The translations under genes were made by a program, and so were the position numbers. Positions 29,757 to 31,565 of a DNA stretch of 64,000 nt are shown in pieces; position 1 is the first letter of the stretch, and each line of letters opens with the position of its first letter. The stretch comes from Phenylobacterium sp. RIFCSPHIGHO2_01_FULL_69_31 (GTDB lineage: Bacteria; Pseudomonadota; Alphaproteobacteria; Caulobacterales; Caulobacteraceae): contig NZ_MHXN01000011.1 of NCBI RefSeq assembly GCF_001824475.1, positions 7,918 through 71,917 on the forward strand, read 5' to 3'. The notes under the pieces were generated by a model. That model was not told where the DNA came from, searched no databases, and saw nothing but the letters and a program-made list of their open reading frames with translations.

Positions 29757-29834
29757 ATGCGTTCGTTCCGCATCCAGCTCGTAAACCTTCTTCCGACCGC
29801 CTCCGGCGGGCCGGTGAGGGATGTCGTGCGCTAG
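29757..29834 (+). CDS. Putative Ile/Leu/Val attenuation leader peptide (25 aa)
   Basis: Hand-translated MRSFRIQLVNLLPTASGGPVRDVVR*, with an I-Q-L-V-N-L-L cluster, directly upstream of a terminator that precedes the GNAT-ilvC genes. Confidence 0.75.
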   Translation: MRSFRIQLVNLLPTASGGPVRDVVR

Positions 29835-29864
29835 GACCTGGAAGCGACCGCAGACCGCCACACC

Positions 29865-29897
29865 AGCCCCGCCGGGATCCGGACGGGGCTTTTTCTT
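29865..29897 (+). terminator. Attenuator terminator upstream of the GNAT gene and ilvC
   Basis: AGCCCCG-c-CGG-gat-CCG-ga-CGGGGCT followed by TTTTCTT. Its 5' arm is complementary to GGCGGGCCGGTG at 29805..29816. Confidence 0.85.
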
Positions 29898-29933
29898 GGC
29901 CTCGATCCGCCCGCCCAACCGGAGACGAGACCG

Positions 29934-30440
29934 ATGGACCCACGCAGTTCCGATATAGTCGTCCGCGCGATGGAGCCGGCCGACATCCCCGCCGTGACCG
30001 AGGTGCTGGGCCAGCCGCGCGCGGTCTGGGGCACGCTCCAGCCGCCGTTCGTATCGGTAGACGCGCGGCAGAAGCGGCATGCGGAGACCGGTCCCGGCGA
30101 TGCGGGGCTCGTGGCCGTGCTCGACGGCCGGGTCATCGGCTCGATCGGCCTGCACCGCGATCGCCCCCACAGGCGCAGCCATGTGGCCAGCCTGGGCATG
30201 GCCGTCCACGACGCCTACGCGGGCCGTGGCGCGGGTGCGGCGCTGCTCGCCGCCGTCATCGACCTGGCCGAGCGCTGGTGGAACATCAAGCGGCTGGAAC
30301 TCAACGTCTACGCCGACAACACCCGCGCCATCGCCCTCTACGAGCGGTTCGGCTTCCAGCGCGAGGGCCTGCACCGCGCCTACGCCTGGCGCGACGGCGC
30401 CTATGTGGACTCGCTGAGCATGGCGAGGCTCGCCCTGTGA
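29934..30440 (+). CDS. GNAT N-acetyltransferase, YhhY/AaaT-like
   Basis: QP..VWGTLQ.P, RRSHVASLGMAV, GRGAGAALL, W.NIKRLELNVYADN..AIALYERFGF..EG...YA.RDG.YVD...MARL. This matches my recollection of E. coli YhhY. Confidence 0.85.
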   Translation: MDPRSSDIVVRAMEPADIPAVTEVLGQPRAVWGTLQPPFVSVDARQKRHAETGPGDAGLVAVLDGRVIGSIGLHRDRPHRRSHVASLGMAVHDAYAGRGAGAALLAAVIDLAERWWNIKRLELNVYADNTRAIALYERFGFQREGLHRAYAWRDGAYVDSLSMARLAL

Positions 30441-30545
30441 CGGCCCGTCCCTTGACCTTCGCGCAAAAAAACGCTTCACACCCCCGGCTTTGCTGCGCCG
30501 CCGTTGCGCGCTCGCAGCAGGTTTCATTGTCTCAGGAGAACAATC

Positions 30546-31565
30546 ATGCGCGTCTACTATGACCGCGACGCCGACATTTCCCGCATCCTGGACAAGAAGA
30601 TCGCCATCGTAGGGTATGGCAGCCAGGGTCGCGCGCATGCGCTGAACCTCGTCGATTCCGGCGCGAAGAACGTGGCCGTGGCGCTGAAGGCCGGCTCGGC
30701 CACCGCCAAGAAGGTCGAGGCCGACGGCCTGAAGGTCATGACCGTGGCCGACGCCGCGGCCTGGGCCGACGTACTCATGGTGCTGGCGCCCGACGAGCTG
30801 CAGCGCGGCATCTACAACGCCGAGATCGCGCCCAACATCCGCGACGGCGCGGCGCTGCTGTTCGCCCACGGCCTGAACGTCCACTTCGGCCTGATCGAGC
30901 CCAAGTCCACCGTCGATGTGCTGATGGTGGCGCCCAAGGGCCCCGGCCACACCGTGCGCGGCGAGTACCAGAAGGGCGGCGGCGTGCCCTGCCTGATCGC
31001 GGTCCACCACGACGCCACCGGCGGCGCCATGGACTTGGGGTTGGCCTATGCGTCGGCTATCGGCGGGGGCCGCTCGGGCATCATCGAGACCAACTTCCGC
31101 GAGGAATGCGAGACCGATCTGTTCGGCGAGCAGGCCGTGCTCTGCGGCGGCCTGGTGGAGCTGATCCGCGCGGGCTTCGAGACCCTGGTCGAGGCGGGCT
31201 ATGCGCCCGAGATGGCCTATTTCGAATGCCTGCACGAGGTGAAGCTGATCGTGGACCTGATCTACGAAGGCGGCATCGCCAACATGAATTACTCGATCTC
31301 CAATACGGCCGAGTACGGCGAGTACGTCACCGGCCCGCGCATCGTCACCGCCGAGACCAAGGCCGAGATGAAGCGGGTGCTCGAGGATATCCAGTCGGGC
31401 CGGTTCGTCCGCGACTTCATGCAGGAGAACGCCGTTGGCGCGCCGTCCTTTAAGGCGACCCGCCGCCGGGGCTCCGAGCACCAGATCGAGGAAGTGGGCC
31501 AGCGCCTGCGCGCCATGATGCCCTGGATCACCAAGAACAAGCTGGTCGACACCGCGCGGAACTGA
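30546..31565 (+). CDS. ilvC: Ketol-acid reductoisomerase
   Basis: [55 protein letters not shown]. Confidence 0.99.

Follow-up and report, generated by a model that had tools for sequence, protein, structure and literature searches.

The 64,000-nucleotide (nt) stretch of Phenylobacterium sp. RIFCSPHIGHO2_01_FULL_69_31 considered here (contig NZ_MHXN01000011.1; the whole stretch is referred to as the window) contains, ahead of a gene for a small GNAT N-acetyltransferase, a leader region with the anatomy of a ribosome-mediated transcription attenuator. The source genome is G+C-rich and Phenylobacterium-like, with the closest relatives of the window genes being found in Phenylobacterium metagenome-assembled genomes (MAGs) and isolates. 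The gene order around the leader is clpB (+), a DUF1508 gene (+), arfB (-), a 238-nt intergenic region, the GNAT gene (+), ilvC (+) and a convergent RTX/FG-GAP gene. The intergenic region houses a promoter-like sequence, a short open reading frame (ORF) and segments that can enter into three alternative pairings, termed 1:2, 2:3 and 3:4 (Table 1). An earlier note on this DNA had pointed to the 25-residue leader, to a CCGCC/GGCGG hairpin (29797-29809), to an antiterminator arm with its complement and to a terminator with a U-tract, and all four are present where it placed them.

Table 1. Features of the leader region and of the genes on either side of it (window coordinates).
Feature	Position	Strand	Details
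DUF1508 gene	29051-29257	+	
arfB, alternative ribosome-rescue factor	29267-29695	-	NCBIfam PRK09256, 191 bits
Leader promoter-like region	29721-29750	+	-10-like GCTAAAGC (29743-29750); weak -35-like TAGCCGACG (29721-29729)
Leader ORF	29757-29834	+	25 codons, MRSFRIQLVNLLPTASGGPVRDVVR, then stop; ORF list and 40-locus alignment
Proposed control codons	29781-29792	+	GTA (Val, 29781-29783), AAC, CTT CTT (Leu, 29787-29792); codon bias
Hairpin 1:2	29786-29820	+	Region 1 CCTTCTTCCGACCGCC (29786-29801), region 2 GGCGGGCCGGTGAGGG (29805-29820); -19.6 kcal/mol (ViennaRNA)
Antiterminator 2:3	29805-29873	+	GGCGGGCCGGTG (29805-29816) with CACCAGCCCCGCC (29861-29873); pairing conserved
Intrinsic terminator 3:4	29865-29897	+	11-bp stem, one bulged A, loop GAT, T-tract TTTTTCTT; -20.6 kcal/mol
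Spacer with GNAT Shine-Dalgarno sequence	29898-29933	+	GGAG (29921-29924); T-tract to GNAT start
GNAT N-acetyltransferase, YhhY/AaaT-like	29934-30440	+	168 aa; Pfam Acetyltransf_1 (PF00583), 1.9e-20
ilvC promoter-like module and 5' untranslated region (UTR) of ~58 nt	30452-30545	+	Conserved across contexts
ilvC, ketol-acid reductoisomerase	30546-31565	+	339 aa; NCBIfam PRK05479, 557.6 bits

The leader element and its conservation

The leader is found well beyond the window. A scan with the GNAT protein, taking one genome per species, provided 56 loci, of which 40 could be delimited and aligned, each with an ATG-initiated ORF, a variable spacer of approximately 30 nt, the same terminator and then the GNAT gene; four further copies of the element occur in L016, L043, L050 and L059. 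More than 40 Phenylobacterium/Caulobacteraceae genomes carry the element ahead of this GNAT gene. When the aligned leader loci were turned into a covariance model, the model detected exactly one full copy in the 64-kb window, with 133.7 bits, and none near ilvC in 78 metagenome loci that contain ilvC without the GNAT gene. More distant homologues of the GNAT gene, from Burkholderiales, Rhizobium and three Caulobacterales MAGs, are without it. Rfam 15 gave no match within 29696-29933 at E values up to 10, and no family reached its gathering score anywhere in the window. The literature was searched for a leader or attenuator ahead of a GNAT gene or YhhY and nothing relevant was found, which leaves room for an existing description.

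Across the 40 aligned loci the leader ORF is between 23 and 26 codons long, the insertions and deletions within it are all multiples of three, and it ends at one aligned place with a stop codon that may be TAG (29 loci), TAA (6) or TGA (5). The narrow length range, the preservation of the frame and the switching of stop codons together point to a coding constraint on the ORF, and the leader would thus appear to be translated. Its two halves behave differently. The first 13 codons vary freely in the amino acid sequence that they specify, with rare Val, Leu and Ile codons being kept. The extent of this codon preference can be gauged from the long ORFs of the window, where GTA accounts for 1.6% of Val codons, CTT for 4% of Leu codons and ATT for 3.4% of Ile codons. 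Over leader codons 2-13, GTA supplies 32 of the 40 Val codons, CTT 44 of the 66 Leu codons and ATT 13 of the 33 Ile codons, such that codons ending in A or T make up 80% for Val, 68% for Leu and 39% for Ile, as against 5% for Ala and Thr and 0% for Ser and Gly. Every leader has at least one rare Val, Leu or Ile codon and 35 of the 40 have at least two. GTA occurs 32 times in frame and not once out of frame. Moreover, the codon positions that are occupied differ among loci (5 for GTA, 7 for CTT and 6 for ATT), so that the rare codons are kept while moving, which speaks against a fixed DNA signal. The possibility that these AT-rich triplets represent a DNA signal for the divergent arfB promoter was rejected on the grounds that they keep strictly to the reading frame, occur as Val, Leu and Ile codons only, and shift in position between clades. 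Just upstream of the proposed control codons of the window lie an ATC (Ile, 29772) and a CTC (Leu, 29778). The earlier note had assigned the role of control codons to Ile, Leu and Val, and comparative codon bias does point to these three amino acids, but the leader uses one to three rare synonymous codons in place of a classical run.

The C-terminal half of the leader (TASGGPVRDVVR) is conserved at the level of RNA, as it houses region 2 and one strand of a closing helix, ATGCGC/GYGCGC. Changes in this half are non-synonymous but keep or improve the pairing, as with CCG to CTG, which converts a C.A mismatch into a U-A pair. The closing helix arises from the ability of ATGCGC (29757-29762), at the start of the leader, to pair with GTGCGC (29826-29831) just ahead of its stop codon; this pairing accounts for the nearly invariant Met-Arg start and Val-Arg end of the leaders, and the pair at alignment columns 5:74 occurs in G-U, G-C and A-U variants.

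The three RNA helices differ in how strictly they are maintained. The core of hairpin 1:2, in which CCGCC (29797-29801) and GGCGG (29805-29809) enclose a TCC loop, is kept in most loci, the outer pairs being clade-dependent, and 63% of cells in the alignment are paired. The antiterminator of the window comprises 11 pairs plus a single C.A mismatch and a single bulged C, and its duplex has a calculated energy of -23.8 kcal/mol (ViennaRNA, over the slightly wider windows 29805-29820 and 29857-29875); for its 12 aligned pairs, 81% of cells are paired in the 40 loci compared to 28-51% in controls with the 3' partner displaced by 1-3 columns. The terminator stem, AGCCCCGCCGG-GAT-CCGG(A)CGGGGCT at 29865-29890 followed by TTTTTCTT up to 29897, is nearly invariant, with 96% of cells paired. 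Folding of the whole 206-nt region is not unusual relative to shuffled sequence for such G+C-rich DNA (z = -1.28), and a simple terminator scan of the window does not list the leader terminator, the bulged A in its stem being the likely reason; the case for anything beyond chance therefore rests on conservation. What supports the predicted structure of the leader RNA is its conservation and its geometry. The classical attenuation geometry that had been claimed for this region agrees with these computations, both in the anatomy of a translated leader and in the alternative 1:2, 2:3 and 3:4 pairings.

The consequences of ribosome position were explored by masking the mRNA to 12 nt past the A-site for each leader codon and folding the remainder up to the emerged 5' arm of the terminator. 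In most of the 40 loci the predicted probability that the 5' arm of the terminator pairs upstream is about 0.6-0.9 as long as the A-site is on one of codons 1-13, and the arm is mostly free once the A-site lies between about codon 14 and the stop. Folding at equilibrium with the whole terminator in place had been uninformative and gave way to this procedure.

Downstream of the terminator, the distance from the T-tract to the GNAT start is 21-54 nt in all aligned loci, which is too short to accommodate a separate promoter. The stretch that follows the T-tract (window 29881-29933) is complementary to the 3' arm of the terminator, with GGCCCCGTCCG in relatives and a degenerate GGCCTCGATCCG in the window, and can also fold into a hairpin over the GNAT Shine-Dalgarno sequence. 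With regard to the accessibility of this Shine-Dalgarno sequence on antitermination, the mean unpaired probabilities are 0.24 versus 0.28, with the value being higher in 27 of the 40 loci. Through the two alternative pairings of this stretch, translation of the GNAT might conceivably be coupled to the antiterminated state.

At the other end of the element, alignment of 41 loci on the leader ATG reveals TA at -12/-11 (within GCTAnnnn), TTTGCC at -36 to -31 and C at -1, a pattern that resembles the housekeeping promoter consensus of Caulobacter; the -35 of the window itself is a poor match. Neither the window nor the aligned loci have a Shine-Dalgarno sequence ahead of the leader ATG. The canonical spacing of this promoter-like pattern relative to the ATG would place the transcription start on A29757, which is the A of the leader ATG, and the transcript would then be leaderless, with no 5' UTR. 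Leaderless mRNAs are common in Caulobacter, where 375 have been described (PMC4117421). No RNA-seq from an isolate came to light. Two aquifer metatranscriptomes provide exact contigs over L032, another leader-carrying locus (2837-3013 and 2884-3040), that run from inside the leader through the terminator into the GNAT gene. Their depth is 2, and DNA carry-over is possible; metatranscriptome contigs in this analysis have a depth of 2-3 overall and may include DNA. The two contigs are consistent, if only weakly, with read-through transcripts.

The acetyltransferase, ilvC and the surrounding genes

The first gene after the leader had been described in the earlier note as YhhY/AaaT-like, and this description holds. 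The protein is 39% identical to E. coli YhhY over its full length (residues 6-166, E 1e-40) and its best NCBIfam model is PRK10140, the YhhY family, though at 124.3 bits it lies below the equivalog cut-off of 236, and a substrate specificity equal to that of YhhY can therefore not be assumed. The E. coli protein is similar in size (162 versus 168 aa) and belongs to the same GNAT fold family but, in the annotation of strain MG1655, yhhY lies next to ryhB and has no annotated leader, unlike the gene in the window. The nearest solved structure is PDB 2vi7 (2.6e-34), which is PA1377 from Pseudomonas, a protein that does not acetylate putrescine (PMC10542159). Several close homologues carry the JGI/KEGG label L-phenylalanine/L-methionine N-acetyltransferase (aaaT). 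By analogy with the naming of the YhhY/AaaT family, the substrates of the window enzyme are presumably free L-amino acids or their analogues. The protein is not recognisable as a resistance determinant by the NCBIfam models, since its scores fall far short of what these require: 35 against 250 bits and 20 against 400 bits for AAC(6') models, and 42 against 170 for ArsN1.

The relationship of the leader to ilvC is more involved, given that ilvC has a promoter-like module of its own. At 30452-30480, approximately 95 nt ahead of the ilvC ATG, lies TTGACCT followed by 14 nt that include an A-tract and then GCTTCACA. Metagenome loci without the GNAT gene (L058, L062-64, L066-70 and L072-73) have this module too, again about 95 nt ahead of ilvC, and in L062, L067 and L070 it is positioned directly 3' of an intrinsic terminator. 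As the module is kept with or without the GNAT gene, and also directly after terminators, ilvC is very probably transcribed independently. In many Caulobacteraceae-like contigs the module takes the form TTGAC(C/G), a spacer with GCAAAAAA and then GCTnnAnnC, and the ilvC 5' UTR of about 58 nt has a conserved GC-rich hairpin (window ~30492-30522, GCTGCG...CGCAGC). Judged by sequence, a separate regulatory site may be formed by the UTR hairpin and by the A-tract that lies between -35 and -10. There is no strong intrinsic terminator between the GNAT stop codon and ilvC, the scan flagging a weak 6-bp site at 30503-30518 that lies inside the ilvC 5' UTR, and an exact contig from an RNA-type run spans 30276-30509. 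It follows that ilvC may receive some read-through from the GNAT gene without being the defining target of the element. The earlier proposal that the attenuator controls ilvC is accordingly kept in part, with read-through as a possible extra input, and loses ground in that ilvC has its own conserved promoter module in every context. For purposes of annotation, control by this attenuator should not be taken for granted for ilvC in these genomes.

The arrangement of genes around the leader falls into two classes. Class A, comprising the window and about 20 loci, has arfB divergent from the leader, which is followed by the GNAT gene and then ilvC. Class B, also about 20 loci, has the same divergent arfB and the leader with the GNAT gene alone, the next gene being a convergent Fur-family gene in 18 cases. 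Cultured carriers include Phenylobacterium sp. J367 (L007), in which the unit is linked to ilvC, as well as Phenylobacterium sp. Root700 (L032) and P. aquaticum KACC 18306 (L024), both with the GNAT gene alone. Thus the leader-GNAT-ilvC order, for which a survey of conservation had been proposed, is not the conserved unit; what is conserved is arfB divergent from leader-GNAT, with ilvC being absent downstream in about half of the genomes. The GNAT gene lies upstream of ilvC in just 2 of 80 metagenome ilvC loci, one of which (L060) is without the leader. A rough tree of the GNAT proteins splits class A into two clades and places L060 near the base, so that the adjacency of GNAT and ilvC is probably ancestral, and this runs counter to the alternative raised earlier that the GNAT gene is a recent neutral insertion. 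The metagenome contig L060 (2080-2400) has arfB, a GNAT gene whose product is 56% identical, and ilvC in the same order; its intergenic region is a different 300 nt that lacks the leader/terminator element.

The divergent neighbour arfB accompanies nearly all of the leader-carrying loci. Its start codon is about 40-60 nt from the leader ATG in most of them, and with so short a distance the arfB and leader promoters must overlap. Insertions of 400-1300 nt separate arfB from the leader in L001, L005, L006, L015, L026, L033, L053 and L055, and a related strain (run X27) has a 380-nt insertion at this place. On the far side of ilvC there is a strong intrinsic terminator at 31594-31626 (GGCCCGGGAGCGATCCCGGGCCGTTTTTCG), for which weak partial Rfam matches to the 3' ends of the small RNA (sRNA) models CC0196 and CsrC are mere terminator matches. 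An rsgA-like gene for a ribosome-biogenesis GTPase (33812-35017, -) and a second small GNAT gene (Acetyltransf_CG, 35047-35430, +) are located within 2-4 kb downstream of ilvC. The RTX/FG-GAP ORF as listed (31863-34109, -) overlaps the rsgA-like ORF by some 300 nt, and its true start is therefore probably further downstream. More distant are a RusA-like resolvase fragment (40644-41000) adjoining a fumarase gene, and a flagellar hook/filament cluster (41525-49827) with flgE, flgD, a fliK-like gene, flgK and a flagellin-like gene. A tRNA scan found nothing.

A model of the switch and its rivals

Taken together, the element is probably a ribosome-mediated transcription attenuator dedicated to the YhhY/AaaT-like GNAT. 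That its signal is provided by Leu, Val and Ile codons acting as sensors of tRNA charging is held with a little less assurance, at somewhat better than even chances. In the proposed mechanism transcription would start on the A of the leader ATG or immediately beside it, to give an mRNA without a 5' UTR, and a ribosome would translate the 25-codon leader while RNA polymerase moves ahead. With smooth passage beyond codon 13 to the stop, the ribosome would cover region 2, or hairpin 1:2 would re-form behind it, leaving region 3 free to enter the 3:4 terminator, and RNA synthesis would stop at the T-tract (~29897). Were the ribosome to be delayed within the first 13 codons, probably at a rare GTA (Val) or CTT (Leu) codon, or at ATT (Ile) in relatives, region 2 would be free to pair with region 3 (29861-29873), the terminator would be blocked and the polymerase would read into the GNAT gene. 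In the window genome the polymerase could then continue into ilvC, owing to the absence of a strong terminator between the two genes. Since ilvC has a conserved promoter of its own, the attenuator would be primarily the switch of the GNAT gene.

A number of observations weigh against this model. Covariation in the helices is almost nil, as assessed by RNAalifold and by pair counts, with the antiterminator offering one A-U and several G-U variants; compensatory changes hardly occur, since there is so little variation in the helices. At equilibrium, with the full terminator included, the terminator wins at nearly all stall positions, so that the attenuation model needs kinetic control, under which such an outcome is to be expected, and the predicted ribosome-free state ranges from 0.05 to 0.99 across the loci. 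Control codons do not form a tandem run in the leader, and Val, Leu and Ile account for just 25-33% of codons 2-13 against about 20% in proteins, which is far weaker than in classical ilv/leu leaders. An exact 151-nt contig begins at 29754, 3 nt before the ATG, in a run of unclear type; if it is RNA, it argues against a strictly leaderless start. Finally, the regulated gene is not biosynthetic for the amino acids that would be sensed. What advantage might there be in such a wiring? One thought, rather doubtful as it stands, is that stalling of ribosomes on the rare branched-chain codons makes the cell acetylate, and so remove, those near-cognate competitors or natural antimetabolites that cause the stall or would be misincorporated, with the candidate targets, under the same doubt, being norvaline, norleucine, excess Met or Phe, or an excess of one branched-chain amino acid.

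The main competitor to a branched-chain signal is that the same switch senses a general slowing of translation, as caused by ribosome-targeting antibiotics, ribosome damage or global starvation, with the GNAT being a stress- or drug-modifying enzyme that works alongside arfB. The conserved divergent neighbour is indeed a ribosome-rescue gene, termination is predicted to fail wherever in codons 1-13 the ribosome stalls, the Val, Leu and Ile codons occur singly in a leader where Met, Thr, Phe and His are also common, and GNATs often modify antibiotics. Leader-peptide attenuators of resistance genes are, moreover, well known. A generic sensor would, however, have no need of a rare-codon bias confined to Val, Leu and Ile codons and not shared by those for Ala, Thr, Ser and Gly, and the best family for the enzyme is YhhY, with aminoglycoside acetyltransferase models far below their cut-offs (35 versus 250 bits); sensing of general slowing is therefore considered improbable.

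Two alternatives remain. That the element is really a branched-chain operon attenuator for ilvC, with the GNAT as a co-regulated passenger, was the full model of the earlier note, and it draws on the apparently ancestral adjacency of the two genes, the absence between them of any terminator stronger than the 6-bp site at 30503-30518, the RNA-run contig across 30276-30509 and a greater number of Val, Leu and Ile codons in the ilvC-linked leaders (4.0 of 12 codons in class A versus 2.9 in class B; p = 0.002, without phylogenetic correction). It becomes very unlikely given that about 20 genomes keep the leader although their ilvC lies at another place, that ilvC has its own promoter module in every context, that none of the 78 GNAT-less metagenome loci has the element upstream of ilvC, and that L060 retains arfB-GNAT-ilvC without any leader. 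Hardly to be expected either is an independent gene for a functional 25-residue peptide, or an sRNA of ~140 nt with its own terminator, next to a separately transcribed GNAT gene. The conserved ORF with its C-terminal motif and the strong terminator would suit such a gene, and in another alphaproteobacterium attenuator RNAs and leader peptides can act in trans (PMC6614838, PMC7298713). Yet the conserved C-terminal half coincides with region 2 and the closing helix and changes non-synonymously with pairing kept, the N-terminal half is not conserved as protein, the 21-54 nt between the T-tract and the GNAT gene are filled by the hairpin over its Shine-Dalgarno sequence, and the L032 metatranscriptome contigs bridge leader and GNAT. 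The leader RNA or peptide may nonetheless have a trans role on top of its role in cis.

With the attenuator assigned to the GNAT gene, a textbook device of amino acid biosynthesis is here wired to a little-understood acetyltransferase of the YhhY/AaaT family. If the response to Leu/Val/Ile-tRNA charging were confirmed, this link would be a direct clue to the purpose of the GNAT family, and the leader would offer a clean case from nature in which a high-G+C genome senses through its choice of rare codons. Should the acetylation idea also be true, the locus would constitute a translation-quality module next to arfB, and a physiological role would be in hand for the YhhY/AaaT family, which is poorly understood.

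Comparison with known attenuators

The enterobacterial ilvGMEDA, ilvBN and leu operons have the classical leader-peptide transcription attenuators, and a rare Leu codon is a feature of the leu leader of E. coli as well. Within the Caulobacterales, the ilvBN leader of Caulobacter crescentus is a branched-chain leader-peptide attenuator (PMC4117421). The element, if it works as proposed, shares with these systems a short translated leader with branched-chain control codons, the mutually exclusive 1:2, 2:3 and 3:4 hairpins, and a terminator before the first structural gene. It differs from ilv/leu-type leaders in having one to three rare synonymous codons where these have a tandem control-codon run, in apparently lacking a 5' UTR, in the position of its stop codon, which is downstream of region 2 and not before it, and in controlling a GNAT gene as opposed to a biosynthetic operon. 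It has no sequence relationship to the leader families of Rfam.

Two other systems come close in individual respects. The leaderless polycysteine short ORFs of mycobacteria are reported to be cysteine-responsive attenuators (bioRxiv 10.1101/834739); a leaderless first cistron sets downstream expression by the supply of one amino acid, much as is proposed for the element, but the amino acid and the phylum are different, the Cys codons are consecutive and the genes controlled are Cys-related. The trpL leader of Sinorhizobium meliloti is, like the element, an alphaproteobacterial ribosome-dependent attenuator, which releases a short terminated RNA and a leader peptide (PMC6614838, PMC7298713). 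It senses Trp and controls trpE(G), and its RNA and peptide also act in trans, unlike the element as it is known here. Ribosome-mediated attenuation itself is thus well established, and what sets the element apart is the use of single rare synonymous codons, the placing of the stop after region 2 and the GNAT as target.

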